Notes: generated from the letters alone by a model not told the origin. A stretch of DNA of 64,000 nt from Botryllus schlosseri (GCA_051294905.1 CM119371.1:23376001-23440000), one strand, 5' to 3'. Counted from the first letter of the stretch, positions 11,126 through 46,769 are shown. Program-made: numbers and translations.

Positions 11126-12500
11126 TCAGTTGCTCTTCCTCCAGCACAAGAAATCTATCCATTTTCGCATTTGAGGCAAGAAATCATTTTCCAGCCAGTC
11201 CAATCGTGAATCGTCTGGGCTGCAATATGGCTTCAAGTCGGCGTTGTAGCTGAAGTTGGTTGATGTATTCATAATGTCTAACCACTTGTTGAAAATACCG
11301 GCAAACCATGCAGAAGCTTCCATATCGTCACCTCTCATCGCTCGCATAATACGCGCAACACTATTAGACCAAAGCTGAGCAGCAAAAATCACCCGCATCT
11401 TTGCAAAGCTTTGCATACGAAAATCTGCATCCGTCAATTTGCAGCATCTCAATTCCGTCGTTTCAAACAGTTTGACAACAGCCGTAAAATGCCGCCATCG
11501 AATAAATTTACCATCCTTGATGAGAAGTTTCGTACCACCAGTGCGGATGGCGTAGATGTCGTTGCGTACGGTTTTTAACAAATGGGGAGGGTCGAAAATC
11601 AAAAATATCTCATGCTGAGGGTTGAATATATTTTTGCATTTGTAAGGATAGTATAAGTTCAAGTTATTCAGCTCTTGGAACATCTTGCGATTTGCACTGA
11701 GTCCATCAGCAACAAACGCAGCTACCCGAAATTCACAGTCCTCCAAGATGCCGACTCATTCCCAGAATAAACTTGAAAGTTGAAATGAAGCCAGCGACTT
11801 TTTGCGTAGTATGCCAAGGGTTTGGAAAAATACGTTACCAGGCCCCTGGCATAAACTTGAAGAGCATGTGAAGCTGGTCACCACCATATACAGGTCTCGA
11901 CTCCCCAAGATCAACAAATCCTACAATTATGTCTTTCGTTGTACTGAATAAAAAATTCTCTTTCACTGAAAATGCAAAAAATCAGAAGTAGTTCGACACA
12001 TTGAACAGCATTGCTGAAATATTTGCAATGAAGTTTTCGACAAAGCTATAAAGTCATGAGAACACAATCTAGCCAATTTACAGGCAAATTTAAGGTTGGA
12101 ATTGCTCCAATTTTCAAATTGATCGATTTGTGTCCTGTCCGCAAAAGCAAATGCATTAGACATTAAAACGAAATTCGTTTTGTCTGTTTTACCAGTCAAC
12201 TACCATGGGAATCAAAATATATAGTCAAGGTAGCCTACCACTCTGTAGTGTTTAGTTAGGCAATGATGACGCGTACAGTATAGAATCATTTCCTCACCTT
12301 TCAACATATCAGATGACGTGAATGAAGTTCGCAAATCTTTAAATCGTCTTTTTTGTACAATTGATCCAGCCACGGATCTTGACGCATGCTCCTTATAAAT
12401 TTCTCAAGGTTTTCCGCCCATTCATATTTTGCGCCAGTGCAAAAACGTTTTGCTGGAACTTTGAACAAATGTGCAATGACTGAGGTATTCATCTATCAAC
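11126..12500 (-). pseudogene. P-element/THAP9-like transposase, frameshifted, intron-containing
   Basis: Motifs ADGLSANRKM, FDPPHLLKTVRN, KMRVIFAAQLWSNSVA, FNKWLDIMN. A THAP-like exon (F.VP...W....ICELH) at ~12299-12500 is bounded by a minus-strand acceptor (ttctcactag) and donor (gtgagg). Frameshifts occur near 11750-11960. Confidence 0.88.
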
Positions 12501-17010: not shown

Positions 17011-17726
17011 TAATCTTCTTTTGAAAGGATGCCGCGAGGTCCCAAAAGTTGAAAACCACTGTAATAAACCATAATTAGCAAGGATAAGGCCGAAGTTTCC
17101 TCGCTATTTATAAAATCTGAACACCCCTAATTGGCGTCGCCGTTATTCCAGTTTAATCTTCGACAATATCAAATATATATATCGTTCAGTGAATTCTCCC
17201 GGTCTATATTGCGCATGAATTCGTTTTGCAGTGTTACGGTGAATCTTATTTGCAAGTTATTGTAATGACATCTTCAATGTTACAAGATTACTATATCGAC
17301 AGAGCAATGCCGTTAGCTGTCTCTAAACGCCACTTGTAGCAGTAGAGATCGACGATAACTAGCGTTACAATCCAAATACTAATAATTGGTTTCAATCGCC
17401 GGATTACAACGTAGCCACAGGGTTACTGCACTGGTTCCCAGATCCCGTTTTATGAACGGTTCTAGACGCTAGTAGCACATGCAGGGGTACGGAGGTTAAC
17501 CAGAAATATGCTTCATGTTTGAAGCGATTCGCTGTAGCCCGACATGATGTATTTTTGGAGTGGATTCGCGTCCGTCAAATTAGAGATTTTGTAACGGCGA
17601 TGCATGATATTTTTATTGTTGTTGCAGGTTTTATTATACTCTTTAGAACCAGAATCAAGATCGTTTACTCTGTCGTCTTTAAGGTGACCCGTAATATAGC
17701 GATACCAAACGCTCAGCTATATTATT

Positions 17727-18692
17727 ATGGAAATCTACTGGATAAGAAGAAAATTAACTTATATCAGTGATCGCAAATTCCTGTTGATTGTGGCGTTAAT
17801 GTTACTGGACACCGCTGCAAACTTCTACTCCACCATACAGTACTGTACCCGCAATGACCTGATACAAGGAAAGCTACGAGGCATATTGGCGGCGGTGTGT
17901 GTCGTTATTGGTGTCTGCGTAAACGTCGAGTTCATTAAACAAGTCCGTGTGGCCAAGCGAGTAGCTAAGAGCTCGAAGGAATGGAAAGATTTGGTTTATC
18001 GCTATTTGATGACGTCGAAACATGTACAAACCATTTGTGAATCAATCCCTCACTTGTGGATCAGCCTCTATCTGCTGTCGACGAAAACTAGTATGGAAAT
18101 ACAGGACAATCTGTTGACCTATGCATCGCCCGCGATATCCTTCTGTTCCATATTATTTTCGCTAAATTTGCCGTACGGAGAGTATCTCAAGACCAAAGGC
18201 ATTCAGGCATCTTTAGCAGAGAGGTACCTCGTATTTGTGGCCAGACTAGCAGTATTCGTTACGAGGATGTCAGTTTTCATTCATTTCACAGTGGTCTTGG
18301 AATTCATAGCCGCTTTTCTACTTTTCGTTTTGTGGTTTGTTCGCTATATTTTACTACAATTCTGGAGGGGCCAAGATAAAGATAATTTTTTAGACTGGTT
18401 TCATTCGAGGAACGGCGGGTTTACAGTGGCAACTCATTTCCTGCTTACCCCGTTTTTGCCGCATAAATGTAGCATCACAGGTGTACTACAAATGTGTGTT
18501 TTCTTTTTCGATCGAATAGTTGTAGTGGTTATCTCTAATGTTCTACATAACAGTCAGGTTGCTCTATATCAACCGCCAGGTCTGATCAGTTATTAAGACG
18601 TTAAAGTTTGCAGTATTATATCTATGGTTTACGTGATATTTTCCATAGCTGTCAGTTAGATGTCCTCTTGGATAGCCCGCATGACACGATAG
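17727..18692 (+). pseudogene. XK-related membrane protein copy 2, truncated by premature stops
   Basis: Colinear paralog of 1720-2682 (MEIYWIRRKLTY..., ICESIPHLWISLYLLSTKT). TAA at 18594-96 replaces GAA. Homologous coding continues as DVKVCSIISMVYVIFSIAVS to a second TAG at 18657-59. AATAAA at 18725-30 sits in a homologous 3' UTR. Confidence 0.7.
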
Positions 18693-27110: not shown

Positions 27111-29495
27111 AAGGGTTGTTCAGAATTGACCGACTTTCAAAAAGTCCAGGTTTTCAGTCTGATTCCCATGCCTTATAACTTAAAAACATATTCTGGCTAC
27201 TTTTTTTTTGTAACTCGTCCCCTGCATCCGTGTGCACATTGAGCTGGAATAATAGCAGCTGAAAATAGGGGATTCCCCTAAAATCTGAGTGTCACGATTT
27301 TACCTAGCCTAGTTAAAGTGACATATAACATGGATTTATGCAGCTGTTGCGGTTTGGAGTGCTACAAAATCCCACTATATAAGGCATTCCTAGTTCAGGA
27401 TATCATTTCCATGTCCCACATTGCCTTAGAACTGCTCAAAACTACCTAAAACTGATAGTCATTTTGTTGGATCACATATCCTACACCCCTCAAACCTACC
27501 CGGCACTGTTCATCAATTTCCTGGATCCCCATGTGCAAGAATACAACTGTAAATGTAACATCCACTCACAGCCACATAATAAACATCACAGGAAACGAAA
27601 AATAAGGCAAAGAAAGAGATCAACTTGGCAAAATATTACATAAATCAGGTGGATGAAATGGTTGATTTCGAGAAATCTGCATATCTGTTCCGGTGATCTT
27701 CCACAGCTTGTAGGAGGCTCGCTCGCTGTTTTTTGTCATCCGTTATGAACTTTGGAATTTAACAAAATCTGTTAGAGCTTTTGTGTTTGACACAACATCC
27801 TCAAACACTGGTAAAAACAAAGGTGCGGTTCCGTTACTTGAAGAATTGATTAACAGGAAAGTTTTCTACAATGCCTGTCACCATCATATTTATGAACTGG
27901 TCATTCGAGAGGTTTGGAAGTGTTTGTTTGGATCGACAACCACAGGCCCTGAAAACACGGATTTTATTACCTTCAAGAAGAAGTGGAAACATTTTGATAA
28001 ATCAAGAAGCTATAAAACGCTGAAGTTTATTGAAGGCAGCTGGTTGGCGATGAAAGCTGATGAAGCAAAGCAAGAAATAATTCCACTGATGAAACCCAAT
28101 GATGGAAAGCAGAAAGAAGTCTTGATAAGAGATGACTACAGAGAGTGTGCAACAGGCACCTTGGCGATTTTGGATGACAAATATGTTGATCATCGTTTTC
28201 GCAAGCCTGGTGCTACTCATAGCGCTAGATGGATGAGTCAAGTCATGTACTGTCAAAAAATGTTCATGTGCAGTGAGCAAATGGACTATTCTGAAGAGTT
28301 CATTGAAAAGTTGGAACGAATCAATACATTCATTGCTTTGTTTTAAGTTCCAGCTTGGTTGAAAACTGGTATTGCATGTGACGCACCGTCGAATGATCTC
28401 AAATTCCTTCATGACATGAAAAATTTTTCATTATGCGATCTCACTGTTGCTGATGTGGCATACAAGAAATTGCGAAAACATCATTGGTATCTAACTGAGG
28501 AAATGGTGGTATTTACCACGTTCTCGGCTAATCCAAATATTCCTGGCAAACTGACGGAAGCGATGGCTGCTAAATTGCTGAAAATGCCAATCCCTGAAAA
28601 ATTTCGTAGAGGTAGCCTATGCCTCTCAGTCTGATCTCTGACTCTGTCTCTGAGTCAATGAGTATGGTCGATTTGAATGGGCCAGAATCCTTGTTTCTAT
28701 TTGATGCTATACATGTGGAACATGATTGGTTGAGTCTTCCAGTTTCGGAATGGCACATTGATCCGGATTTCGTGACTGCTCAAGAATTTGTGAATACTGT
28801 TGAAGTAGTTAATGATGCAGCAGAGCGTATGGTAAAATTGAATACCGACTATGCTGCGTTCATAACGGATGACAAAAAACAGCGAGCGAGCCTCCTACAA
28901 GCTGTGGAAGATCACCGGAACAGATATGCAGATTTCTCGAAATCAACCATTTCATCCACCTGATTTATGTAATATTTTGCCAAGTTGATCTCTTTCTTGG
29001 CCTTATTTTTCGTTTCCTGTGATGTTTATTATGTGGCTGTGAGTGGATGTTACATTTACAGTTGTATTCTTGCACATGGGGATCCAGGAAATTGATGAAC
29101 AGTGCCGGGTAGGTTTGAGAGGTGTAGGATATGTGATCCAACAAAATGACTATCAGTTTTAGGTAGTTTTGAGCAGTTCTAAGGCAGTGTGGGACATGGA
29201 AATGATATCCTGAACTAGGAATGCCTTATATAGTGGGGTTTTGTAGCACTCCAAACCGCAACAGCTGCATAAATCCATGTTATTTGTCACATTAACTATG
29301 CTAGGTAAAATTGTGAAACTCACATTTTAGGGGAATCCCCTATTTTCAGCTGCTATTCTTCCAGCTCAATGTGCACACGGATGCAGGGGACGAGTTACAA
29401 AAAAAGTAGCCAGAATATGTTTTTAAGGTATAAGGCATGGGAATCGGACTGAAAACCTGGACTTTTTGAAAGTCGGTCAATTCTGAACAACCCCA
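27111..29495 (+). mobile_element. hAT-superfamily (hATm-like) element with ~637 bp inverted arms, inserted in a Penelope-like fragment
   Basis: 27113-27750 is the reverse complement of 28858-29493. Termini GGGTTGTTCA match the element at 50928-53101. Flanked by duplicated ACGCACA, and the flanks rejoin into sequence colinear with 58210-58500. Confidence 0.88.
27751..28963 (+). pseudogene. hATm-like transposase, C-terminal half only, with a stop and a frameshift
   Basis: FDTTSSNTG, ACHHHIYE, PGATHSARWMS, HHWYLTEE, VVNDAAERMVKL, LLQAVEDHR motifs spread over ORFs 27783-28346, 28359-28634 and 28619-28963. Confidence 0.85.
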
Positions 29496-29900: not shown

Positions 29901-31889
29901 CAGGAGCCGAAATATAGGATATATAAACGAAATAACTAAAAAATTTAATTATTCCGAGACGGTGCTTGGAAAACCGGTTTCGGGGAGTACTTTCTATGGA
30001 TGGAGCGAACCCCTGAAGGGTTCCGGTTCGTGTAAACGCGAATATTTTCGAAAGTTTTTGTGTGAATCCGAAGGTGCACACTAATCCATGTCCATGTGCT
30101 TACCTTTACTCCTCTTCCTGCAACGTCATGGACGACTTTGACAGCACTTGCGAGTGAATCATTTTGCCGAAAGAGTCTAATAAATGCCCGGCATAAGCGG
30201 CTAATTCAGCCAATCCTTAGATCATTCAGAACTTGAATTATATACCACGACCGGGCCTAATAAAATCAGACATAGTGTCATTGTTAAGTTTTATATTTGT
30301 ATTCAATGATGATGCATCCCTTCTGAAACGAGACATTCGTTCGACACTTGCATGGGCGCCTTTGCAATATTTATCCATGTGTTCTGTGCTTTCCTCGGTC
30401 AAAAAAGGCATGTAAGATTCGACGGTTTCCTTCACAATAAGCAAGTCATGCTTCAAAATTTTATTTAAAGCTGCTGTTGTTTGTGCATCATCATGTATTT
30501 CGTATCTTAACATGTCCTGAATTAATCTTAAGTATTTATCTGCGAACCAACGTATAACATGCTTACAGAATCACCGCCCTTAGCAGACTACTTCAACAAC
30601 TAATCAGCAAGCAACCAACCACCGTCGAGATTATTGAAGCGTCGTCGATTAGCCAATCGAGATCCGTGATCTCGTGATTACTAGTCGTCTTGTCGCTGTT
30701 CTACGGTTACTTTTAATTGAGTATACTCCTTGCTGTCAATACCATGGAATTATAATTCAATGTAAGCGACGTCTATCGACCAAAATGTTGCAAGAGAGAT
30801 GTAGTCAATTCCGAACTTATATATGTAGAGTTGAAATAAGTGTTAAGTCGTAAGGAATTTGCTAGCCGGTAATACCGTCGAAATCGAAGATATAGGAGCA
30901 ACATTATTTAGTTCTTAATAAAACATAACATTTTAATCCACAAACCGAGTAGTAAGGGTAAGGAATTTTGTTGCCCGCCAATCAGAGTGCGCCACGTCAT
31001 CATAATTGCCACGCCCATTTTCATACCCTAAGGGTACATTCATCTGCTACGTCATCTGTGCCACATCATCAAGCGCCACGCTATAGTGCCACATCATCCA
31101 TCCATTGCTATATCATCGCTGCATTGATTGCCGCATCTTGATACTTTTCTCAGATATTGTATTATGTGTATTTAGGACTAATATCATCCGTCCATATTTT
31201 TTTAAACTTGATTTTATGTGTATAAGTTACGGTTTCTGCAGTTTCCACATTTTACGACTCATGATTGCCGCGTCAAAACTTACCTTGGCTAGAATCGACA
31301 GATTTTCTGTAATGTGTAAATTAATTACTTAAATGCGACTTGATAATAATAATCCCTAGAATAATATAAAATGCGATTTTGAGTGCAGGCAGATAGCGGT
31401 TTCGATTTCCGAGGTCTCCACATTTTAAGCCTTATTATCAGCTCGCAGTACAACCGCTACCCGTATGATGTTTGCATGTCGAGTATAAGGGTATTTACCT
31501 CAGCACTAAAATGCCAACGGACTAGCCGCAGGGGTCCGGTTCTCGTCGCTATAATTAAACGAACACCTTCGCCGCAGGTACGCGATCCCCGACGTTATAA
31601 TGATAGGACCAAATTAGCCGCATGAAAGCGAGTCTAATGAATATAACGGCAGACACCAAGTTAGTTGAAAAGTAAAACTAATCGTGACCGATGCAAGACG
31701 GATTGAAACAGCGCTTTCGCTCGATTCTTGTAGTGACCACATTTCATACGATTCAGTCCTTTTCGTGTCACTAGAATTAGGGTGATTAAACCGACAGTAT
31801 GAAACGCCGCCCGCGTCTTATAACGTAATAATGTAAGCTGCGTCGGGTGCCCGAATAGTCTTGTAGAATTTTCTAAAGTCGTAACAGCT

Positions 31890-32012
31890 TAGTAGCATAT
31901 ACGCGAATCCCAAGGCAAAAATAATCAAACGAACTATAGCCGCCGCCGTGCGAAGCTTCAGTAGCATATACGCAAATCCCAAGGCGAAAATAATCGAACG
32001 AAGTATAGCCGC
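31890..32012 (+). repeat. ~70 bp tandem duplication in left arm (mirror ~44977-45099)
   Basis: AGTAGCATATACGC(G/A)AATCCCAAGGC(A/G)AAAATAATC(A/G)AACGAA(C/G)TATAGCCGC occurs twice. Confidence 0.9.
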
Positions 32013-32621
32013 AGGCGCGAGATTCGCCGGGCTCTAATCATACAAACACTATCTCTGCCTGTACGCGAACCCTAGCGTTATAACGACATGGTCTAATTAG
32101 CGCATTCTGAAGCCAGAAATTTATTCAACTTCATTGAGATAGCCACGATTTAAAGATGGTTATCGAGTGAGACAATAGCACTCGTCAAGGTTATACAAAC
32201 ATAACCTTAAACTAATCTTTACTTCATAACATATAAGGTATGAAAGCACGCTACATAGAAGTGAAAGTAGTCTAGAAACATAACTACTTACTGAAAAATC
32301 GTTACGTAGAAGTGTACTTATATTGGAGCAGAATTGTGATCGATACATTAATGATTTTAATACTCTGTATTTTTAATTACCCACACCTATGAGTCGAAAT
32401 GTTCTTAAGTAACTCATGTTTACAATATCACCTAAACGCAAAGTTCCAAAATTTCCATGCTGATCAAATACCACAAACTTTGCTTGCTTTCAGAGTAAGT
32501 AACAAAGCGCATAACAGATTTCACCTAAATAAGTCGGTACTCCGAAAATTTTGTTAATTTTGATTACTATGTTTTGATGATAACTTGCTTCCGAGAAATA
32601 AATAACATTCATTATACGTTA

Positions 32622-34410
32622 GATGATACTTTTCCTTGATATTCTATTTTGTGTATTTAGGGCTAATTCGACATCACTATGTGGCGACAGGCCTGATTTG
32701 AACACACTAATTTTGCGAATTAAACTTATCGCCCAACACGGACACTCAATGAAGAGCACCCTGGAGACATACATAAATGCTCCACAATTCTTGACATATA
32801 TTATAATGAGCATATAATAAGCTGACAAAACCTATACTTGAGTACTCCGAAATGTACAAGTACTTAACCTTTACACGACGTTTTTGTAAAATGAATACTA
32901 ATTTTAATGAAAAATAAAAATTATGTACTCAAGTAGGTTTTTGTCTACACGCACCAACTACTCAAGTGTTTATTACACAGGAATGATTCATTAAGTATAG
33001 CGCAAGCAGGCCAAACCTATACTTGAGTCCTCCAAAATGTACAAGTACTTCGCTATGTACTCCCTCCACGTAAAAAGTGACTAGGTTTTAGACTACTTTA
33101 TCGATCTTCGATGTTGCGCAAATACCACAAACTTTGCTTGCTTTCAGAGCTGGCAACTAAATGCAAGACATACTTTACGCAAAAGTCTCTATTCTGAAAA
33201 TTTTATCAAGTTAATACTTTAAAAAGTTTTACTTGAGCACTACGGAATGTACACGTACTTTACCTTTACAGGACGTGTTTTGTAAAATGAATACTAATTT
33301 TATTGAAAAAATAAAAAATAAAAAAGGGCGAAAAATTACATTTTATCCCGGAACGCAACAAGATAAATCGTATGAATTTGTAAACTACTTATTCACGACA
33401 TAATAATTCTACTTGTATACTTTTTCATATTTTGTAACAATTTTAGTATTACTTAAATAAAATACGGAAAATATACTAATCGAAAAATTCGGTAACCAAT
33501 TTCGCAATGATGATACTTTTTCTTGATATTCTATTATGTGTATTTAGGGCTAATGCGTCATCACTATGTTGGCGACAGGCCTGATTTGAACACACTAATT
33601 TTGCGAATTAAACTTATCGCCCAACACGGACACTCAATGAAGAGCACCCTGGAGACCCACATAAATGCTCCACAATTCTTGACATATAATATACTGAGCA
33701 TATAATAAGCTGACAAAACCTATAGTTGAGTACTCCGAAATGTACAAGTACTTTACCTTTGCACGACGTTTTTGTAAAATGAATACTAATTTTATCGAAA
33801 AAGAAAAATTATGTACTCAAGTAGGTTTTTGTCTACACACACCAACTACTCAAGTGTTTATGACACAGGAATGATTCATTAAGTATAGCGAGAGCAGACC
33901 AAACGTATACTTGAGTACTCCAAAATGTACAAGTACTTCGCTATGTACTCCCTCCACGTACAAATTGAGTAGGTTTTAGACTACTTTATCGATTTTCGAT
34001 GTTGCGCAAATACCACAAACTTTGCTTGCTTTCGGGGCTGGCAACTAAATGCAAGTCAGACTTTACGCAAAAGTCTCTATTCTGAAAATTTTATCAAGGT
34101 AATAGTTTAAAAACTTATACTTGAGCACTACGAAATGTGCAAGTACTTTACCTTTACACGACGTTTTTTGTAAAATGAATACTAATTTTATTGAAACAAT
34201 AAAACATAAAAAAGAGCGTAAAATTACATTTTATCCCGGAACGCAACAAGAAAAATCGTATGAATTCGTAAACTACTTATTCATGACATAATAATAATTC
34301 TACTTGTACACTTTTTCACATTTTATAACACTTTAAGTAGTACTTAACAGTTTCAGTTTTAAATAAAATACGGAATATAAATATAATCGAAAAATTAGGT
34401 AACCAATTTC
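32622..34410 (+). repeat. ~888 bp tandem duplication, left arm only
   Basis: GATGATACTTTT... at 32622 and 33509 start two diverged copies. The right arm has a single copy (mirror-ORF coordinate sums shift from 76969 to 77857). Confidence 0.92.
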
Positions 34411-34549
34411 GCGTAGACTATGCATACAAATGAGGAAAGTTACATCAACGCGTGTTAACTAGTTGTATCGAGTTATCGAATGATTTTTTCCTTACATCAA
34501 AACAACTAGAATGTGTAACTACATTAAAAACGTATCTAAATGAGCTCCG

Positions 34550-36105
34550 GGGCATTGTGATTATGCAACATATCAAATTTCATCACACATTTCATGATGG
34601 AACAACTTTAAAACTAACGCAGTTCTATAGCAACTTTTGCCTAAATCTGTTTTCGGTAGCGTCTACATATACATAGTCTGCTTTAATAACAGAATTACCA
34701 TGGTAATATGTGACTCCTCACGTTGAAACTTGGTACGTAGTTGTAGGACATTGTGAATATGCAGCATACCAAATTTCGTCGCGCATTTCATAATGAAGAA
34801 ACTTTAAAACTAACGCGGCTCTACATCGACTTTTTGCGTACATCTGTTTTGCGGGAGCGTATAGCACGTACCTATACATAGTCAACTTTAATAACGGAAT
34901 TACCATGCTTAACATTGAATCCCAACTCTAAACTTGATACGTAGATGTAGGACATTATGGCAATGCACCATGCTAAATTTAATCACACATCTAATGATGG
35001 AACACCTTTAAAACTAACGCAGTCGATTACCGACTTTTACGCATATCTGTTTTGCGTGAACATAGCATATACCTATACATAGTCAATTTTAATAACAGAT
35101 TTACTGTGTTAAACATTGAATTCCTACCTTTATAGCTGGTACGCGGTTATAGGACATACCAAATCCAAATCCACCATACCACATCCCATCACACATTTCA
35201 TGATGGAACAACTTTAAAACGAACGCGGCTCTACATCGACTTTTTGCGTACATCTGTTTTGCGGGAGCGTATAGCACGTACCCATACATAGCCAACTTTA
35301 ATAACGGAATTACCATGCTTAACATTGAATCCCAACTCTAAACTTGATACGTAGTTGTAGGACATTATGGTAATGCACCATGCTAAATTTCATCATACAT
35401 CTAATGATGGAACACCTTTGAAACTATCGCAGTCGAATACCGACTTTTACGCATATCTATTTTTCGTGAACATAGCATATACCCATACATAGTCAATTTT
35501 AATAACAGAATTAGCATGCTAAACATTAAATTCTCACCTTGAACGTTGGTACGCAGTTGTAGGACATAATAACAATGGACCATACCAAATTTCGTCAGAT
35601 ATTTCATGATGTAACACCTTTAAAACCAACGCAGTTCTATACAGACTTTTGGCTAAATCTGTTTTTCCGTAGCGTAGCACGTACCTATACATAGTGAACT
35701 TTAATAACGGAATTACCATGTTAATAATCGACTCCCCACCTTGAAACTCGCTACGCAGTTGTAAGACATTATGACAATGCACCATGTCAAATTTTGTTAC
35801 GCATTTCATGATTGAACAACTTTAAAACTAACGCAGTTCCATACCGACTTTCGCAGGAGCGTAGCACGTACCTATGCATACTCAACTTTAATAACGGAAT
35901 TACCGAGCTAAACATTGAATGCGCAACTTGAAGATTGGTTCACGGGTGTAAGACATTATGACAATGGAACACATCAAATTTCATCACACATTTCATGATG
36001 AAACACCTTTAAAACTAACGCAGTTCTATACCAACTTCGCGTGAATCTGTTGCGGGAGCGTAGCACGTACCTATGCGTGATCAACTTTAGTGATGGAATT
36101 ACAGA
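34550..36105 (+). repeat. Tandem array of 8 x ~200 bp units (left arm)
   Basis: Anchor CTTTAAAACTAACGC (or variant) at 34606, 34802, 35006, 35212, 35416, 35618, 35820 and 36007. Confidence 0.92.
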
Positions 36106-36656
36106 TGTAATTAAGTTTCAACACTTTTACAATGATTCGTCTTGCTTCCTATAACATTCCACTTGATGCCCTCGTTATTAGGCTGCAATCTCAGGCTGGG
36201 CTATGTCTTGAAGCCTACCGGACTCTGCAAATTGTTTCGATTTATTCTGTCCGTTTCAATTTAAGATAAGGAAGCCCATTTCACTCAATGTATCGATGCC
36301 TACGGTACTCTACAAAATTTTCTGATTAATTCTCCCTATGCTTATTTATCATAAGAAAGATGATTTGACAACTAAGGTACGAAATACTTCTTCGCCTGAG
36401 CTAGGCCGCAGCGCTTGGAGTGGAATTTTACGGGGTATGTAGACTCATTTCGTAGGGCTCTATGCCATAGGAGCATAGTTTACGCTCCAATTCGATTCCC
36501 ACACATTCCATATAATTACTAACAGAACCATTGAGTACCAGCCTTGACATTTTCCGTAGTACTAGATGGGATGTATACAATTTCATGACATCCGACAGTA
36601 CGACGGAGACTATAAAAATATCGAAAGAAGCCCTCTATTCTTTTCTGAAATAATCA

Positions 36657-36782
36657 AGGTTTTATCAGGACTTCCCTTCATATAAACTCCTGCAGAATCA
36701 CTAATAACCTCTCAAGTTTAGGTTTTATCAGGACTTCCCTTCATATAAACTCCAGCAGAATCATTTATAACCTCTTAAGTTT
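36657..36782 (+). repeat. ~63 bp tandem duplication (mirror ~40990-41115)
   Basis: AGGTTTTATCAGGACTTCCCTTCATATAAACTCC(T/A)GCAGAATCA occurs twice. Confidence 0.9.
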
Positions 36783-38862
36783 ACTCACCTCGTTTAATCT
36801 GATACTCGTGTACCAAATCCCTATTTTCCGCAAGTATGATAGAGGCTATCGCTCGACACTCAACGATTCGTAATTTTGCTGGAATACAAGTACAATTGGG
36901 GTTGAAAAGTAACTGATATAGGTGGTTATGTTTGTAGGATATTTACACTTCTACTTACCGCTTTTCATGAGAAACTACCTACTTTTAGGACTTTATATTT
37001 CAAAGTAGTTTGAGGTTACGTTTGTATCACCTTGATAAGTGCTATTATCAAAAACTGCTTTTGCTAAACTCTTACACTTTCACTGAACTTCAACACTGAA
37101 TCTTGTATAGTAGATAGAAAAGGAACACTATTAACATAAGGTAAGTGAGAAGCACGCAAATGTCGATTGCATACAAACAAACTGCGCTAACTTTCATAGT
37201 TGTTAAGTATAGAAGTACTCGTACTTCTTGAGAATACTCAAGTAGGTTTTTTGCCTACATGCACCACATAGTCTCAAGTCCTTATGATATTGGAGTACAT
37301 CAACTTCATGATAGCTAGAGTATTAAACAGTAATAGACCTAGAGTACTAACGTTTTACTTACTCGGAAATGACTACTTCTACCTTATTTTAAAGGGTACC
37401 TCGTTCGAAGCGAAAATGTACGTGGTTTTGGATAACATCCAAGATGTAGGCTCACTTTGACGGTTACTTCGTAAAACTCAAATATTGCGCAGTGAGAGTT
37501 CGCAAATTCTCGAAGTATTTTTGTTATTTTTATTGCGATAAGTCATTCTGCAGCGCGAAAATGCGTCGTTGGATATAGATGAAACTAGCACCACTCATCA
37601 AGACCGCTGAAAACAGTACGTTTCAACATTTAGTAGCAGTAAATTTCTAGTAAAGTACAAGACGTGATGATTTCCGACTGAGTTAAAAAGTAAGTATTGC
37701 AGGTATAGTTTACCTGAAAACCGAATACTCTGAAATAGAAGTAGCTGCAGTGTAAATAGTTAATCACTTGATTAAGTTTAGTGCAAGCAGATAAAACCTA
37801 TACTTGAGTAGTACAAAATGCACGAGTACTTCGCTATCGCCTCCCTCCACGTAATAAGTGACTACGGTTTAAGACTGCTTTTAGCGATACTCGTCGGTTT
37901 CAGTTTTAGATAGAATTCGGAAACCAAATAATTTCATAAACATAAGCTAATTTAATGAATTTACTCGAATGTACTATGCCGCGCTGATAAGAATAATTAT
38001 AATATACTTATCATGTTACAGCGATTTTTCTAGCGTGGAAAATCTTTAAAATGTAGTAAGCAGGCCAAATGAAGATATTCGTTGAGCTGAATAAACATAA
38101 AAAATACTCTAGACTACTTTATCGGTACTTTACAGTTTCAGTTTTAGATAAAATTTGTCCCTTTCACCTATAATTACAACTTCTCGCTATCTAAACATGT
38201 TTAGAATATATTATTTGCGATGATACGAACCCGTGAAGTACTCAAGTAGCTTTTCGTAGGATATAGATGAAACTGACAACACTCACCAAGACCGCTGGTC
38301 CACTGAAAAAAGTACATTGTAACAGTAAAGTCCTACTAAAGTACAAGAAGTAATGATTTCCCAGTTAGTTGAAAAGTAAGTATTGAAGGTATAGTTTGCT
38401 CGAAAAAACGAAAAACTCTGAAATAGAAGTAGATGCAGTGTAAATAGGTAATCACTTCATTAAGTATAGCGCAAGAAGGCCAAACCTATACTTGAGTACT
38501 GCAAAATGTACAAGTACTTCGCTATGTTCTCCCTCCACGTAAAAAGTGACTAGGTTTTAGAGTACTTTATCGGTACTCGACAGTTTCAGTTTTAGATAAA
38601 ATTTGGTAAGACTTTAAATTTTAAAGTAGTTTGAGCTTACGTTTGTATCACCTTGACAAGTAACATTATCAGACATGAAAATGATACTATCACCTAATAT
38701 AGAAGTTAACACGCGTCAATGTGCTTCGGAATTCACGAGAAATTGCTTACTAAGAGAAGTATATTCTTGTATACACAATAGTGGAGAGAATCTTTAAAAT
38801 GTAGTGAGCAGGCCGATGGGTATTCGTTTAGTTGTATAGGCATAAAAAACAGTCCCGCGCGC

Positions 38863-38908
38863 GCGCCTTAGTATTAGGTGGTAGGGTTAGGAAGTATTTT
38901 GTTTAAGA
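38863..38908. other. Central non-palindromic loop of the giant palindrome, telomere-like and G-rich
   Basis: GCGCCTTAGTATTAGGTGGTAGGGTTAGGAAGTATTTTGTTTAAGA lies between AGTCCCGCGCGC (38851-62) and GCGCGCGGGACT (38909-20). Confidence 0.9.
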
Positions 38909-41437
38909 GCGCGCGGGACTGTTTTTTATGCCTATACAACTAAACGAATACCCATCGGCCTGCTCACTACATTTTAAAGATTCTCTCCACTATTGTGTAT
39001 ACAAGAATATACTTCTCTTAGTAAGCAATTTCTCGTGAATTCCGAAGCACATTGACGCGTGTTAACTTCTATATTAGGTGATAGTATCATTTTCATGTCT
39101 GATAATGTTACTTGTCAAGGTGATACAAACGTAAGCTCAAACTACTTTAAAATTTAAAGTCTTACCAAATTTTATCTAAAACTGAAACTGTCGAGTACCG
39201 ATAAAGTACTCTAAAACCTAGTCACTTTTTACGTGGAGGGAGAACATAGCGAAGTACTTGTACATTTTGCAGTACTCAAGTATAGGTTTGGCCTGCTTGC
39301 GCTATAGTTAATGAAGTGATTACCTATTTACACTGCATCTACTTCTATTTCAGAGTTTTTCGTTTTTTCGAGCAAACTATACCTTCAATACTTACTTTTC
39401 AACTAACTGGGAAATCATTACTTCTTGTACTTTAGTAGGACTTTACTGTTACAATGTACTTTTTTCAGTGGACCAGCGGTCTTGGTGAGTGTTGTCAGTT
39501 TCATCTATATCCTACGAAAAGCTACTTGAGTACTTCACGGGTTCGTATCATCGCAAATAATATATTCTAAACATGTTTAGATAGCGAGAAGTTGTAATTA
39601 TAGGTGAAAGGGACAAATTTTATCTAAAACTGAAACTGTAAAGCACCGATAAAGTAGTCTAGAGTATTTTTTATGTTTATTCAGCTCAACGAATATCTTC
39701 ATTTGGCCTGCTTACTACATTTTAAAGATTTTCCACGCTAGAAAAATCGCTGTAACATGATAAGTATATTATAATTAATCTTATCAGCGCGGCATAGTAC
39801 ATTCGAGTAAATTCATTAAATTAGCTTATGTTTATGAAATTATTTGGTTTCCGAATTCTATCTAAAACTGAAACCGACGAGTATCGCTAAAAGCAGTCTT
39901 AAACCGTAGTCACTTATTACGTGGAGGGAGGCGATAGCGAAGTACTCGTGCATTTTGTACTACTCAAGTATAGGTTTTATCTGCTTGCACTAAACTTAAT
40001 CAAGTGATTAACTATTTACACTGCAGCTACTTCTATTTCAGAGTATTCGGTTTTCAGGTAAACTATACCTGCAATACTTACTTTTAACTCAGTCGGAAAT
40101 CATCACGTCTTGTACTTTACTAGAAATTTACTGCTACTAAATGTTGAAACGTACTGTTTTCAGCGGTCTTGATGAGTGGTGCTAGTTTCATCTATATCCA
40201 ACGACGCATTTTCGCGCTGCAGAATGACTTATCGCAATAAAAATAACAAAAATACTTCGAGAATTTGCGAACTCTCACTGCGCAATATTTGAGTTTTACG
40301 AAGTAACCGTCAAAGTGAGCCTACATCTTGGATGTTATCCAAAACCACATACATTTTCGCTTCGAACGAGGTACCCTTTAAAATAAGGTAGAAGTAGTCA
40401 TTTCCGAGTAAGTAAAACGTTAGTACTCTAGGTCTATTACTGTTTAATACTCTAGCTATCATGAAGTTGATGTACTCCAATATCATAAGGACTTGAGACT
40501 TTGTGGTGCATGTAGGCAAAAAACCTACTTGAGTATTCTCAAGAAGTACGAGTACTTCTATGCTTAACAACTATGAAAGTTAGCGCAGTTTGTTTGTATG
40601 CAATCGAAATTTGCGTGCTTCTCACTTACCTTATGTTAATAGTGTTCCTTTTCTATCTACTTTTCAAGATTCAGTGTTGAAGTTCAGTGAAAGTGTAAGA
40701 GTTTAGCAAAAGCAGTTTTTCATAATAGCACTTATCAAGGTGATACAAACGTAACCTCAAACTACTTTGAAATATAAAGTCCTAAAAGTAGGTAGTTTCT
40801 CATGAAAAAGCGGTAAGTAGAAGTGTAAATATCCTACAAACATAACCACCTATATCAGTTACTTTTCAACCCTAATTGTACTTGTATTCCAGCCAAATTA
40901 CGAATCGTTGAGTGTCGAGCGATAGCCTCTATCATACTTGCGGAAAATAGGGATTTGGTACACGAGTATCAGATTAAACGAGGTGAGTAAACTTAAGAGG
41001 TTATAAATGATTCTGCTGGAGTTTATATGAAGGGAAGTCCTGATAAAACCTAAACTTGAGAGGTTATTAGTGATTCTGCAGGAGTTTATATGAAGGGAAG
41101 TCCTGATAAAACCTTGATTATTTCAGAAAAGAATAGAGGGCTTCTTTCAATATTTTTATAGTCTCCGTCGTACTGTCGGATGTCATGAAATTGTATACAT
41201 CCCATCTAGTACTACGGAAAATGTCAAGGCTGGTACTCAATGGTTCTGTTAGTAATTATATGGAATGTGTGGGAATCGAATTGGAGCGTAAACTATGCTC
41301 CTATGGCATAGAGCCCTACGAAATGAGTCTACATACCCCGTAAAATTCCACTCCAAGCGCTGCGGCTTAGCTCAAGCGAAGAAGTATTTCGTACCTTAGT
41401 TGTCAAATCATCTTTCTGATGATAAATAAGCATAGGG

Positions 41438-41612
41438 AGAATTAATCAGAAAATTTTGTAGAGTACCGTAGGCATCGATACATTGAGTGAAATGGGCTTC
41501 CTTATCTTAAATTGAAACGGACAGAATTAATCAGAAAATTTTGTAGAGTACCGTAGGCATCGATACATTGAGTGAAATGGGCTTCCTTATCTTAAATTGA
41601 AACGGACAGAAT
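41438..41612 (+). repeat. 85 bp tandem duplication, right arm only
   Basis: AGAATTAATCAGAAAATTTTGTAGAGTACC... starts at 41438 and again at 41523; single copy in the left arm (~36245-36335). Confidence 0.92.
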
Positions 41613-41751
41613 AAATCGAAACAATTTGCAGAGTCCGGTAGGCTTCAAGACATAGCCCAGCCTGAGATTGCAGCCTAATAACGAGGGCATCAAGTGGAAT
41701 GTTATAGGAAGCAAGACGAATCATTGTAAAAGTGTTGAAACTTAATTACAT

Positions 41752-43307
41752 CTGTAATTCCATCACTAAAGTTGATCACGCATAGGTACGTGCTACGCTC
41801 CCGCAAACAGATTCACGCGAAGTTGGTATAGAACTGCGTTAGTTTTAAAGGTGTTTCATCATGAAATGTGTGATGAAATTTGATATGTTCCATTGTCATA
41901 ATGTCTTACACCCGTGAACCAATCTTCAAGTTGCGCATTCAATGTTTAGCTCGGTAATTCCGTTATTAAAGTTGAGTATGCATAGGTACGTGCTACGCTC
42001 CTGCGAAAGTCGGTATGGAACTGCGTTAGTTTTAAAGTTGTTCAATCATGAAATGCGTAACAAAATTTGACATGGTGCATTGTCATAATGTCTTACAACT
42101 GCGTAGTGAGTTTCAAGGTGGGGAGTCGATTATTAACATGGTAATTCCGTTATTAAAGTTCACTATGTATAGGTACGTGCTACGCTACGGAAAAACAGAT
42201 TTAGCCAAAAGTCTGTATAGAACTGCGTTGGTTTTAAAGGTGTTACATCATGAAATATCTGACGAAATTTGGTATGGTCCATTGTTATTATGTCCTACAA
42301 CTGCGTACCAACGTTCAAGGTGAGAATTTAATGTTTAGCATGCTAATTCTGTTATTAAAATTGACTATGTATGGGTATATGCTATGTTCACGAAAAATAG
42401 ATATGCGTAAAAGTCGGTATTCGACTGCGATAGTTTCAAAGGTGTTCCATCATTAGATGTATGATGAAATTTAGCATGGTGCATTACCATAATGTCCTAC
42501 AACTACGTATCAAGTTTAGAGTTGGGATTCAATGTTAAGAATGGTAATTCCGTTATTAAAGTTGGCTATTTATGGGTACGTGCTATACGCTCCCGCAAAA
42601 CAGATGTACGCAAAAAGTCGATGTAGAGCCGCGTTCGTTTTAAAGTTGTTCCATCATGAAATGTGTGATGGGATGTGGTATGGTAGGTTTGGATTTGGTA
42701 TGTCCTATAACCGCGTACCAGCTATAAAGGTAGGAATTCAATGTTTAACACAGTAAATCTGTTATTAAAATTGACCATGTATAGGTATATGCTATGTTCA
42801 CGCAAAACAGATATGCGTAAAAGTCGGTAATCGACTGCGTTAGTTTTAAAGGTGTTCCATCATTAGATGTGTGATTAAATTTAGCATGGTGCATTGCCAT
42901 AATGTCCTACATCTACGTATCAAGTTTAGAGTTGGGATTCAATGTTAAACATGGTAATTCCGTTATTAAAGTTGACTATGTATAGGTACGTGCTATACGC
43001 TCCCGCAAAACAGATGTACGCAAAAAGTCGATGTAGAGCCGCGTTAGTTTTAAAGTTTCTTCATTATGAAATGCGCGACGAAATTTGGTATGCTGCATAA
43101 TCACAATGTCCTACAACTACGTACCAAGTTTCAACGTGAGGAGTCACATATTACCATGGTAATTCTGTTATTAAAGCAGACTATGTATATGTAGACGCTA
43201 CCGAAAACAGATTTAGGCAAAAGTTGCTATAGAACTGCGTTAGTTTTAAAGTTGTTCCATCATGAAATGTGTGATGAAATTTGATATGTTGCATAATCAC
43301 AATGCCC
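41752..43307 (-). repeat. Mirror copy of the 8 x ~200 bp array (right arm)
   Basis: Reverse complement of 34550-36105. Confidence 0.92.
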
Positions 43308-46300
43308 CGGAGCTCATTTAGATACGTTTTTAATGTAGTTACACATTCTAGTTGTTTTGATGTAAGGACAAAATCATTCGATAACTCGATACAACTAGTT
43401 AACACGCGTTGATGTAACTTTCCTCATTTGTATGCATAGTCTACGCGAAATTGGTTACCTAATTTTTCGATTATATTTATATTCCGTATTTTATTTAAAA
43501 CTGAAACTGTTAAGTACTACTTAAAGTGTTATAAAATGTGAAAAAGTGTACAAGTAGAATTATTATTATGTCATGAATAAGTAGTTTACGAATTCATACG
43601 ATTTTTCTTGTTGCGTTCCGGGATAAAATGTAATTTTACGCTCTTTTTTATGTTTTATTGTTTCAATAAAATTAGTATTCATTTTACAAAAAACGTCGTG
43701 TAAAGGTAAAGTACTTGCACATTTCGTAGTGCTCAAGTATAAGTTTTTAAACTATTACCTTGATAAAATTTTCAGAATAGAGACTTTTGCGTAAAGTCTG
43801 ACTTGCATTTAGTTGCCAGCCCCGAAAGCAAGCAAAGTTTGTGGTATTTGCGCAACATCGAAAATCGATAAAGTAGTCTAAAACCTACTCAATTTGTACG
43901 TGGAGGGAGTACATAGCGAAGTACTTGTACATTTTGGAGTACTCAAGTATACGTTTGGCCTGCTCTCGCTATACTTAATGAATCATTCCTGTGTCATAAA
44001 CACTTGAGTAGTTGGTGTGTGTAGACAAAAACCTACTTGAGTACATAATTTTTATTTTTCGATAAAATTAGTATTCATTTTACAAAAACGTCGTGCAAAG
44101 GTAAAGTACTTGTACATTTCGGAGTACTCAAGTATAGGTTTTGTCAGCTTATTATATGCTCATTATAATATATGTCAAGAATTGTGGAGCATTTATGTAT
44201 GTCTCCAGGGTGCTCTTCATTGAGTGTCCGTGTTGGGCGATAAGTTTAATTCGCAAAATTAGTGTGTTCAAATCAGGCCTGTCGCCACATAGTGATGTCG
44301 AATTAGCCCTAAATACACAAAATAGAATATCAAGGAAAAGTATCATCTAACGTATAATGAATGTTATTTATTTCTCGGAAGCAAGTTATCATCAAAACAT
44401 AGTAATCAAAATTAACAAAATTTTCGGAGTACCGACTTATTTAGGTTAAATCTGTCATGCGCTTTGTTACTTACTCTGAAAGCAAGCAAAGTTTGTGGTA
44501 TTTGATCAGCATGGAAATTTTGGAACTTTGCGTTTAGGTGATATTGTAAACATGAGTTACTTAAGAACATTTCGACTCATAGGTGTGGGTAATTAAAAAT
44601 ACAGAGTATTAAAATAATTAATGTATCGATCACAATTCTGTCCAATATAAGTACACTTCTACGTAACGATTTTTCAGTAAGTAGTTATGTTTCTAGACTA
44701 CTTTCACTTCTATGTAGCGTGCTTTCATACAAATCTGCTTACTTTTATAACCTTATATATTATGAAGTAAAGATTAGTTTAAGGTTATGTTTGTATAACC
44801 TTGACGAGTGCTATTGTCTCACTCGATAACCATCTTTAAATCGTGGCTATCTCAATGAAGTTGAATAAATTTCTGGCTTCAGAATGCGCTAATTAGACCA
44901 TGTCGTTATAACGCTAGGGTTCGCGTACAGGCAGAGATAGTGTTTGTATGATTAGAGCCCGGCGAATCTCGCGCCTGCGGCTATACTTCGTTCGATTATT
45001 TTCGCCTTGGGATTTGCGTATATGCTACTGAAGCTTCGCACGGCGGCGGCTATAGTTCGTTTGATTATTTTTGCCTTGGGATTCGCGTATATGCTACTAA
45101 GCTGTTACGACTTTAGAAAATTCTACAAGACTATTCGGGCACCCGACGCAGCTTACATTATTACGTTATAAGACGCGGGCGGCGTTTCATACTGTCGGTT
45201 TAATCACCCTTATTCTAGTGACACGAAAAGGACTGAATCGTATGAAATGTGGTCACTACAAGAATCGAGCGAAAGCGCTGTTTCAATCCGTCTTGCATCG
45301 GTCACGATTAGTTTTACTTTTCAACTAACTTGGTGTCTGCCGTTATATTCATTAGACTCGCTTTCATGCGGCTAATTTGGTCCTATCATTATAACGTCGG
45401 GGATCGCGTACCTGCGGCGAAGGTGTTCGTTTAATTATAGCGACGAGAACCGGACCCCTGCGGCTAGTCCGTTGGCATTTTAGTGCTGAGTTAAATACCC
45501 TTATACTCGACATGCAAACATCATACGGGTAGCGGTTGTACTGCGAGCTGATAATAAGGCTTAAAATGTGGAGACCTCGGAAATCGAAACCGCGATCTGC
45601 CTGCACTCAAAATCGCATTTTATATTATTCTAGGGATTATTATTATCAAGTCGCATTTAAGTAATTAATTTACACATAATAGAAAATCTGTCGATTCTAG
45701 CCAAGGTAAGTTTTGACGCGGCAATCATGAGTCGTAAAATGTGGAAACTGCAGAAACCGTAACTTATACACATAAAATCAAGTTTAAAAAATATGGACGG
45801 ATGATATTAGTCCTAAATACACATAATACAATATCTGAGAAAAGTATCAAGATGCGGCAATCAATGCAGCGATGATATAGCAATGGATGGATGATGTGGC
45901 ACTATAGCGTGGCGCTTGATGATGTGGCACAGATGACGTAGCAGATGAATGTTCCCTTAGGGTATGAAAATGGGCGTGGCAATTATGATGACGTGGCGCT
46001 CTCTGATTGGTGCGTAACAAAATTCCTTAGCTACACTACTCGCGCTGTTCGAGAAAACAGAGGATTAGTATCGCATTTCCGTATCAATGCTATCATTTTC
46101 ATCCCATGACGTGGACGAATACTTATGATATCGAAAATTGGATACCTGCTGGTATGTATCAACATGAATCAAGCTTGTAACCTATCGCATAGCTCAATTT
46201 GCACCTTTTTACAATCCATGTGAACGAATTAGGATCGTTTTCATAACTACTTACTTACTTGAGTACTTTTAAAGTCAGTCAATTCTACTTCAACTTCAAG

Positions 46301-46769
46301 TAGTTTTAGGTTGCTTTAGGTTGCTTATGGAAGAAGTACTTTTACATCATCATTTACATCATCATTTAACGAAGTCAATATACCAACGGGAACGCCCGAA
46401 GATGTTTTATTATTATTTATAGGGCCTATCTATTCCAACACACCTCAGTCGATGAGCTCTACCGGTAAATCTGATTATCTGAGCAGAGAGAGGATAAAAA
46501 TTGATAGCAATATATATGCAATTCCCGATCATATTGACCGATTCAATCATGAGTTATATAAATTTTTCGCGCTTCGCGCTATTAGGCGACACAACCACTA
46601 AACTGGCACCCAATGTAGATGATAAGTACCGGAAAAAAGCTTAGAGCTCTAGGGTAGTTAGTGTTATCACCCTATGGAGGGCCTGGTTGCGCACTGTTGT
46701 CCAAGGGCCTGCGCAGTAAGTTGGCGTGTTTTCGCAGACTCGTGAAAAATTAGAGGGAACATTGCTCGT

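Follow-up and report, generated by a model that had tools for sequence, protein, structure and literature searches.

We analyzed a 64,000-nucleotide stretch of the Botryllus schlosseri genome (GCA_051294905.1 CM119371.1:23376001-23440000; hereafter the window), which holds a 15,093-bp palindromic element at positions 30948-46040. An earlier interpretation made from the window alone (the sequence-only reading) had taken this element for a candidate snap-back satellite related to Maverick/Polinton transposons. Our comparison of the element with its relatives across the genome leads us to consider it likely that the window holds an old, probably immobile copy of a large non-autonomous Maverick/Polinton-type family whose entire body is palindromic.

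Structure of the palindrome

A repeat search of the window revealed collinear inverted-repeat blocks that span 30946-46042 and close on a 46-nt loop. A global alignment of the left arm with the reverse complement of the right arm, in which 8 gaps were needed, shows 99.3% identity, with 47 differences over ~7,024 aligned positions. An insert of 888 nucleotides distinguishes the left arm at 32838, and the right arm has 85 nt and 21 nt of its own. The features of the element are listed below, with window positions and, in parentheses, the strand.

30948-46040 (no strand): whole element, a 15,093-bp palindrome, one member of a multi-copy family
30948-38862 (+): left arm, 7,915 nt
38863-38908: central loop, 46 nt, asymmetric, on the axis of the palindrome
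38909-46040 (-): right arm, 7,132 nt
30948-30953 (+): (AGT)2 end motif, mirrored by (ACT)2 at 46035-46040; AGTAGT is present in 37 of 37 family ends examined
30954-30977 (+): hypervariable 24-nt terminal module of the left end, in a version unique in the genome
46011-46034 (-): hypervariable terminal module of the right end, unlike the left one and common to other palindrome families
30978-31015 (+): near-invariant subterminal block, nt 31-68 from the end, mirrored at 45973-46010
30992-31098 (+): three inward-facing copies of the motif CCACRTCATC, at 30992, 31061 and 31089, with mirror copies at 45890-45996 on the minus strand
32838-33725 (+): 888-nt segment found in the left arm only, an additional copy of an 888-nt direct repeat
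34563-36102 (+): tandem array with a 202/410-nt unit, mirrored at 41820-43294
41438-41643 (-): 85-nt repeat, 2.4 copies, one unit more in the right arm than in the left

The sequence-only reading had described the whole 15,093 bp as one inverted repeat around this loop, opening with AGTAGT, closing with ACTACT and filled with internally amplified modules, and each part of that description holds: the arms match as stated, the two motifs can be read directly at the ends, and the modules are the 202/410-nt array mirrored in both arms and the 888-nt direct repeat. The two ends of the element are nevertheless not identical, with seven differences in their first 35 nt. The 500-nt bin nearest the ends holds 12 of the 47 arm mismatches, most of them within the first ~45 nt when both ends are compared by eye; outside the ends, the mismatches are spread evenly, with a uniform divergence of ~0.5%. 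The motif CCACRTCATC is likewise concentrated, as its six matches in the 64-kb window all lie at the two ends of the element (0.18 expected).

We found no credible gene in the element. No stop-to-stop open reading frame (ORF) is longer than 95 aa, none of the 40 left-arm ORFs of at least 50 aa matches Pfam at E<=0.01, and the element has neither an Rfam match at gathering thresholds nor a tRNA predicted by ARAGORN.

A large family sharing one axis

The genome searched comprises 495.5 Mb in 219 contigs, with the window on contig C1; only the best candidates of each search were scored, and the counts given here are lower bounds. Both the ends and the centre of the element recur throughout this assembly. 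A search with the first 303 nt returned 1,022 candidates and 58 matches, mainly as facing inverted pairs 10-26 kb apart. A subterminal motif of 24 nt is present 251 times, with 124 sites in forward and 127 in reverse orientation, compared with none for a backwards control. Among the first 100 motif sites listed are 39 adjacent plus/minus pairs, whose sizes have their median at 15.6 kb (interquartile range 14.6-16.9 kb); 33 of the 39 measure 12-18.5 kb. The central 200 nt, including the loop, matched over their full length and with 95-100% identity at all 40 scored places (of 611 candidates), and with only 81-84% identity on the opposite strand. Because this full-length match was obtained at every scored place, a single axis must have been passed on through a very large family, which numbers well over a hundred copies.

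Eight other elements were retrieved whole, namely five of the window family, two sister-family palindromes and one Polinton. Six of the eight (C7, C6, C4, C15, C5 and C1:24.6 Mb) are palindromic over all or most of their length. Those other than the Polinton are:

C7:19.36 Mb, window family: palindromic throughout, arm blocks 99.5-99.8% identical
C6:1.60 Mb, window family: palindromic throughout, arms 99.4% identical
C4:9.62 Mb, window family: palindromic for the most part, arm blocks 98.7-99.2% identical
C1:24.6 Mb, window family: 6.8-kb arms interrupted by a nested 9.5-kb middle
C8:26.8 Mb, window family: palindromic in part only
C15:0.75 Mb, sister family: palindromic throughout, arms 99.88% identical
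C5:5.76 Mb, sister family: palindromic throughout, arms 99.8-100% identical

The left arm of the window copy is 98.7% identical to the C1:24.6 Mb copy over 6.7 kb, and no ORF longer than 281 aa is present in the palindromes retrieved whole; genes for a polymerase, an integrase or a capsid are lacking in these elements. Insertion of the family leaves a clear trace: among 15 copies, 10 have perfect target-site duplications (TSDs) of 6 bp, two have duplications that match at 5/6 positions, and three have none (the window copy, C13:24.8 Mb and C8:19.5 Mb). All four sister palindromes have perfect TSDs, one of them on the condition that three AGT repeats are counted at its right end. Further copies of the termini, further copies of the centre and 6-bp TSDs had all been raised by the sequence-only reading as things to look for, and all are present, the many copies of the termini each lying in different flanks.

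These data bear directly on another account of the locus, in which an assembly artefact or a single inverted segmental duplication produced it. Such an account draws on the missing TSD of the window copy, on the difficulty of assembling palindromes and on an N gap near the centre of one relative. It is contradicted at the level of the family, where 251 termini and up to 611 centre candidates lie in unrelated flanks on many contigs and where TSDs border most copies; moreover, the private indels and the 47 substitutions between the arms of the window copy would not arise from a fold-back read artefact. The one-off duplication, which the sequence-only reading had itself raised, is excluded because the copies are many and lie in different flanks, because the family has TSDs, and because of the resident Polintons and the sister-family terminal repeat described below. 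We therefore rate this explanation, artefact included, as very improbable.

Several loci of unusual form were noted during the search. The 5.1-kb element at C3:14,195,667-14,200,777 carries the exact right-end terminal module of the window copy and the duplication CACGTG; its arms look near-identical over ~1.5 kb, as judged via their parallel matches to the window arm, and much shorter palindromes of a similar kind therefore exist. At C8:19,518,934-19,528,810 (9.9 kb), inverted identity extends 262 nt past both AGTAGT ends (99.6%) and there is no TSD; this copy may represent an insertion at the axis of a smaller palindrome, or a larger inverted duplication. Copies of the central loop lie 7-10 kb apart on one strand at C13:14,011,155 and 14,021,540, C5:26,379,906 and 26,388,140, C5:21,060,313 and 21,067,173, and C11:23,472,052 and 23,479,436, which suggests tandem or nested palindromes.

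Resident Polintons and a sister family that carries their terminal repeat

According to a part of the survey by Barreat and Katzourakis (2021; PMC8097293), the Maverick signature consists of (AGT)2//(ACT)2 or (AG)3//(CT)3 ends and perfect 6-bp duplications. We delimited a gene-bearing Polinton with this signature at C1:5,923,771-5,942,033 (18,263 bp, AGTAGT ends, duplication GCCGAG), whose terminal repeats of 443 nt are 99.5% identical. Its ORFs encode an rve+chromo integrase, an A32-like ATPase and a 1,214-aa protein-primed DNA polymerase B (pPolB) that passes PF03175. A 432-aa protein is its capsid candidate, with the nearest Atlas clusters having a DJR-like domain (score 0.98); this assignment is a lead only, as the family is found in 14-30% of cluster members. 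Of 438 candidate relatives of the pPolB, 38 were scored, at 92-95% identity; the frame is open in 34 of these, and the genome is thus rich in plausible helpers. A profile search of the genome with Pfam PF03175 returned nothing, which is a false negative since the protein query found the 38 polymerase loci.

The terminal repeat of this Polinton has 1,303 candidate matches in the genome, and many pairs of terminal repeats 11-15 kb apart contain none of the 38 scored polymerase loci. One palindrome carrying the repeat, at C15:753,707-767,608, is 13.9 kb long, has arms 99.88% identical over 6,786 nt, is flanked by the duplication GACGAT and contains no ORF of at least 120 aa. Over 442-457 nt at its termini it matches the Polinton terminal repeat with 95-96% identity, without any difference in the first 32 nt, and a further ~230 nt show 71% similarity to sequence just inside the left repeat of the Polinton. 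The C15 palindrome and the Polinton are a textbook case of an autonomous element and its non-autonomous partner, the latter being palindromic over its whole length, and the window family would be a second such family with a different subterminal sequence.

The window family itself has the end motif in common with the C1:5.92 Mb Polinton, over the first 6 nt (11 nt for the right end of the window copy), and its TSDs have the same length. Insertion of the family makes 6-bp TSDs, as the rve integrase of the resident Polintons would. In addition, a core related to CCACRTCATC, namely CAC[AG]TC[AG]T, which we chose after viewing both sequences, occurs six times in the Polinton terminal repeat, always inward-facing, with 0.07 expected. 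The search for gene-bearing elements with matching termini, which the sequence-only reading had proposed, succeeded in part: Polintons with AGTAGT ends and a 6-bp duplication are present, but none was found that carries the subterminal sequence of the window family. Other copies, 6-bp TSDs, resident Polintons and the 450-nt terminal repeat of the sister family together favour an element that is Maverick/Polinton-related, non-autonomous and multi-copy, in partial support of the sequence-only reading.

The same evidence speaks to the idea that the family is a foldback transposon from an unrelated cut-and-paste superfamily, with ends that resemble those of Mavericks by chance. Long arms, internal tandem sub-repeats and the near absence of a middle would suit a foldback element, as would the failure to find a helper with the family's subterminal sequence. 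Chance resemblance is hard to reconcile, however, with an exact (AGT)2 at ends that the TSDs fix independently, with a duplication length of 6 bp, and with a sister palindrome family that bears the 450-nt Polinton terminal repeat, the terminal module being common to these families. We consider a foldback origin improbable.

Matched arms and shuffled end modules

Comparison of 12 copies showed that the arms of an element resemble each other more than they resemble those of any relative. Identity between the two arms of a copy, over 1.7 kb, is 98.9-100% in 11 of the 12 copies, whereas in the twelfth an arm is disrupted. In 11 of 12, no other copy reaches the identity that the two arms have to each other, and the two arms of a copy are sisters in the tree in all 12. 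Faithful copying alone would leave the arms of one element at least as diverged as any two copies, and the opposite is seen. Since arms within a copy are more alike than copies among themselves, some process keeps the arms matched.

The ends show the same behaviour on a smaller scale. Across the family, the first 6 nt do not change, the following stretch up to nt 30 is hypervariable (mean entropy 1.08 bit), and hardly any variation occurs in nt 31-68. The 22 distinct ends include 21 distinct terminal modules, and the distance from the end to the conserved block is fixed at 30 nt in 36 of 37 ends. Despite the differences in module between copies, 11 of 12 copies have the same first 35 nt at their two ends. 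The modules also move between elements: one 32-nt end occurs on three interiors, those of the window family, of a subfamily with a diverged core and of a C5 family with an unrelated interior, and in the family with the Polinton repeat 16 of 40 scored matches, as counted from the table, begin only at query nt 32-49. The number of AGT repeats can also be unequal within one element, with three at one end and two at the other.

The C5 element (C5:5,758,528-5,776,108) is a third palindrome family, 17.6 kb long, whose interior is unrelated to that of the window family. Its terminal module equals the right end of the window copy with one mismatch in 32 nt; its two ends carry three and two AGT repeats, and its duplication AGTACA fits only on that reading. 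A relation of the hypervariable module to the interior, by pairing with or repeating an internal segment, was considered and rejected, as the longest matches to a module's own element (6.8/7.3 nt) equal those to other copies (6.9/7.3 nt).

From these patterns we infer that ends are exchanged between elements and then copied from one end to the other within an element. Our main argument for a replicative reading is that such an exchange is easy for a free linear replicon, in which the displaced strand pairs end to end or forms a hairpin, and hard for chromosomal sites 15 kb apart. The alternative is that a Polinton integrase does no more than mobilise the elements, and that the palindrome and its matched arms stem from host fold-back repair at breaks and gene conversion between the arms, like those of other large genomic palindromes, with no protein-primed replication, hairpin or packaging. 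The ends and the 6-bp duplications indeed require just an integrase, no extrachromosomal form was observed, the subterminal motif does not occur in viral or metagenome contigs, and the even spread of arm mismatches outside the ends of the window copy is what slow drift is expected to give. This alternative has difficulty with end modules that are identical at both ends of a copy though they differ between near-identical copies and have been shuffled onto unrelated interiors, for which a chromosome would need two coordinated conversions of ~25 nt, 15 kb apart. Nor does it account well for at least three families with unrelated interiors that are all whole-length palindromes, or for AGT numbers that differ between the ends of one element, a slip expected from jumping back. 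Integrase-only mobilisation is therefore, in our estimate, unlikely, though it deserves more weight than a foldback origin.

A Bcl-2-like gene in the arms of relatives

The search for coding sequence in the relatives identified a gene that the window copy lacks. Each arm of the C5 element contains an intact Bcl-2-family ORF of 220 aa (PF00452, E 9e-22), at C5:5,764,905 (+) and C5:5,767,986 (-), and the closest solved relative of the encoded protein is Mcl-1 (E 4e-12). A genome-wide search with this ORF returned 583 candidates; the 150 matches that were scored mostly face each other in pairs 3-10 kb apart. Intact Mcl-1/Bcl-2-like ORFs of 193-220 aa occur one per arm in many giant palindromes, some copies being 99-100% identical, and several of the pairs have the central loop of the window family halfway between them. 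By tblastn, the ORF has no match in the window or in the Polinton loci.

Within the window family, the gene or its remains were found in 9 of the 39 pairs on C1-C7, four of them with open frames. The description of the element as non-coding, given by the sequence-only reading, is thus correct for the window copy, where ORFs reach at most 95 aa and none matches Pfam, and fails for the family because these nine paired relatives hold a Bcl-2-like gene or what is left of it. In the closest relative of the window copy, at C7:19.36 Mb, the gene has decayed, with a stop and a frameshift. The 202/410-nt array of the window copy sits where this C7 relative holds the decayed gene, and the array's unit lies, in the C7 copy, just downstream of the gene region. 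These positions suggest that the window copy lost its Bcl-2-like gene and has the tandem array in its place.

Bcl2 and IAP homologues are among the accessory genes of adintoviruses, according to a part of the account by Starrett et al. (2021; PMC8502044). The facts fit an arm that joins one Polinton end to an accessory gene and was then duplicated in mirror image.

History of the window copy

The window copy is not typical of its family. Its own-arm identity (98.9% over 1.7 kb) is the lowest of the 11 intact pairs, and its left-end module has one exact site in the genome and three within 2 mismatches. The right flank, 46041-46345, is an abundant repeat of ~305 nt (4,359 candidates, 91-95% identity in 40 scored matches), and the left flank, in its final 238 nt, is nearly unique in the genome. 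We conclude that the window copy is probably an old, rearranged and immobile member of the family.

If the window copy had crossed over with another member of the family within the invariant subterminal block, the swapped end, the lost TSD and the otherwise uniform 0.5% divergence of the arms would be explained together. The reciprocal product, a partner element with the left-end module that would account for the missing TSD through an inversion, was not among the one exact and three near sites. The right-flank repeat, for its part, had no other copy in the genome stretches compared, and no displaced duplication was visible beyond it.

Elsewhere in the window, a separate small foldback lies at 27203-29405, with 548-nt arms of 98% identity around 1.1 kb, and a 210-aa ORF that overlaps it has no Pfam match. 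ORFs for XK-related proteins, weak but above the Pfam cut-off, are found at 1654-2682 and 17700-18596 (both +), and a fragment of a TNP-like transposase domain is found at 11126-11755 (-).

How the palindromes may multiply

Under the reading that we prefer, a non-autonomous Maverick/Polinton-type family, resident Polintons probably move the element. The repeats at Maverick ends have been interpreted as templates for jumping back in protein-primed replication (a part of PMC8097293), and the jumping-back step has been described for adenovirus (a part of PMC5175343). A helper's terminal-protein-primed polymerase would copy the element outside the chromosome, with jumping back at the AGT repeats as its start. 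A palindrome's displaced strand would snap back into a full-length hairpin and then be copied again, and recopying of the hairpin, or repair of one end from the other, would regenerate matched arms and ends in each cycle. The helper's integrase would insert the resulting linear duplex. The ancestral arm would have been one Polinton end that included the accessory Bcl-2-like gene. Snap-back or hairpin replication, two identical origins and padding to the size of a helper genome, all proposed by the sequence-only reading, are inferences at present, and the two ends of the window copy differ.

A further step would be to see in the palindromes the genomic record of a hairpin-replicating, defective-interfering-like satellite of an animal Polinton virus. 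In such a satellite, the displaced strand would fold into a 7-8 kb hairpin and be recopied from the protein-primed (AGT)n end; length would be held near that of the helper genome for packaging, and the helper would integrate the element. The 24-nt module of fixed length would be the recognition site of the helper's priming complex, swapped between co-replicating elements, and the survival of the co-infected cell would be secured by the Mcl-1-like gene that full relatives carry. We put this forward as a tentative proposal that is more doubtful than not.

Several observations weigh against the preferred reading. As the sequence-only reading had already noted, the 6-bp flanks of the window copy (AAACCG on the left, CGCGCT on the right) do not match; they agree at 1/6 positions and form no TSD, and the end modules of this copy are mismatched. 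The palindrome of the window copy is read from a genome assembly; in a 21.5-kb family copy, a 100-N assembly gap at C7:19,371,259-19,371,358 lies ~500 nt from the midpoint, where the assembler had trouble at the palindrome centre. Between the window arm and the Polinton, blastn and tblastx give nothing beyond the first 6-11 nt and the post-hoc motif, the search found no Polinton that bears the subterminal sequence particular to the window family, and none of the 16 scored pPolB loci on C1-C7 lies, by eye, within 20 kb of a listed zero-mismatch motif site. Viral and metagenome contig collections contain no copy of the subterminal motif, and no sign of an extrachromosomal, hairpin or encapsidated form was seen. 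Finally, ordinary chromosomal gene conversion could also give rise to matched arms, the clustering of sizes could be inherited from a founder element, and short family copies of 5.1, 7.0 and 9.1 kb are present.

The interest of the family lies in what it may tell about the Polinton life cycle. Adenovirus-like protein-primed replication of Mavericks/Polintons has so far been argued from gene content and end motifs and has not been observed directly. The hundreds of helper-dependent elements described here offer sequence footprints of this life cycle, in the form of arms and ends re-matched in every lineage, end modules that move between unrelated elements, and helper-like sizes. If the satellite proposal is true, the matched arms and ends would give protein-primed Maverick replication its first footprint in a genome. 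The family also indicates that non-autonomous derivatives of virus-like transposons need not shrink and can carry a duplicate gene of an anti-apoptosis type, and that an animal genome tolerates hundreds of near-perfect 15-kb palindromes with loops down to 46 nt.

Comparison with known systems

Non-autonomous Polintons were reportedly mentioned by Kapitonov and Jurka in 2006. Our full-text literature search, which covered open journals without their supplements, found no description of whole-length palindromic or snap-back Polinton derivatives, nor of matched arms, a variable end module or Bcl-2-like cargo in palindromic Polinton derivatives.

The TSDs of FB and Galileo elements are 7-9 bp long and are not matched by the 6-bp TSDs of the window family. 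The very long inverted arms, internal tandem repeats and scant unique middle of the window element nonetheless recall Drosophila FB and Galileo (a part of the Galileo report, PMC3573991). The differences lie in the ends, the 6-bp TSD and the Polinton terminal-repeat link of the window family, and in its arms, which are several times longer.

Hairpin or palindromic derivatives of protein-primed plasmids and snap-back defective genomes are already known, as parts of the literature describe. Hairpin derivatives of protein-primed replicons are inverted duplications of one terminal segment, have the same origin at both ends and depend on a helper, as may be the case for the window family. These derivatives are extrachromosomal by-products in cultures, whereas the B. 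schlosseri palindromes are integrated in hundreds of copies, share one axis and sometimes bear a gene.

The closest likeness is to Mavericks/Polintons themselves. The window family shares with them the (AGT)2...(ACT)2 ends, 6-bp TSDs at the family level, terminal inverted repeats and a size within the range of intact vertebrate Mavericks, which is 12.7-24.6 kb in a part of PMC8097293; gene-bearing Polintons reside in the same genome, and relatives of the window element carry a Bcl-2-like gene. A Maverick/Polinton "by definition" encodes a protein-primed PolB and an rve integrase, as a part of PMC5499653 puts it. The window element encodes neither of these marks of an autonomous Polinton, and it has no ATPase or capsid gene. 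It differs also in the hypervariable 24-nt module behind its end motif and in the extent of its terminal inverted repeats, which are the whole 7-8 kb arms as opposed to the 46-1,447 bp that a part of PMC8097293 gives for vertebrate Mavericks. Polinton terminal repeats can grow inward and double genes, because those of Lepidoptera, in a part of a recent preprint (10.1101/2025.02.07.637071), measure ~2 kb and duplicate the hexon and adenain genes, much as the Bcl-2-like gene is doubled in the B. schlosseri palindromes. The Lepidoptera Polintons keep a unique coding core and are autonomous, whereas in the window family the repeat reaches the centre.

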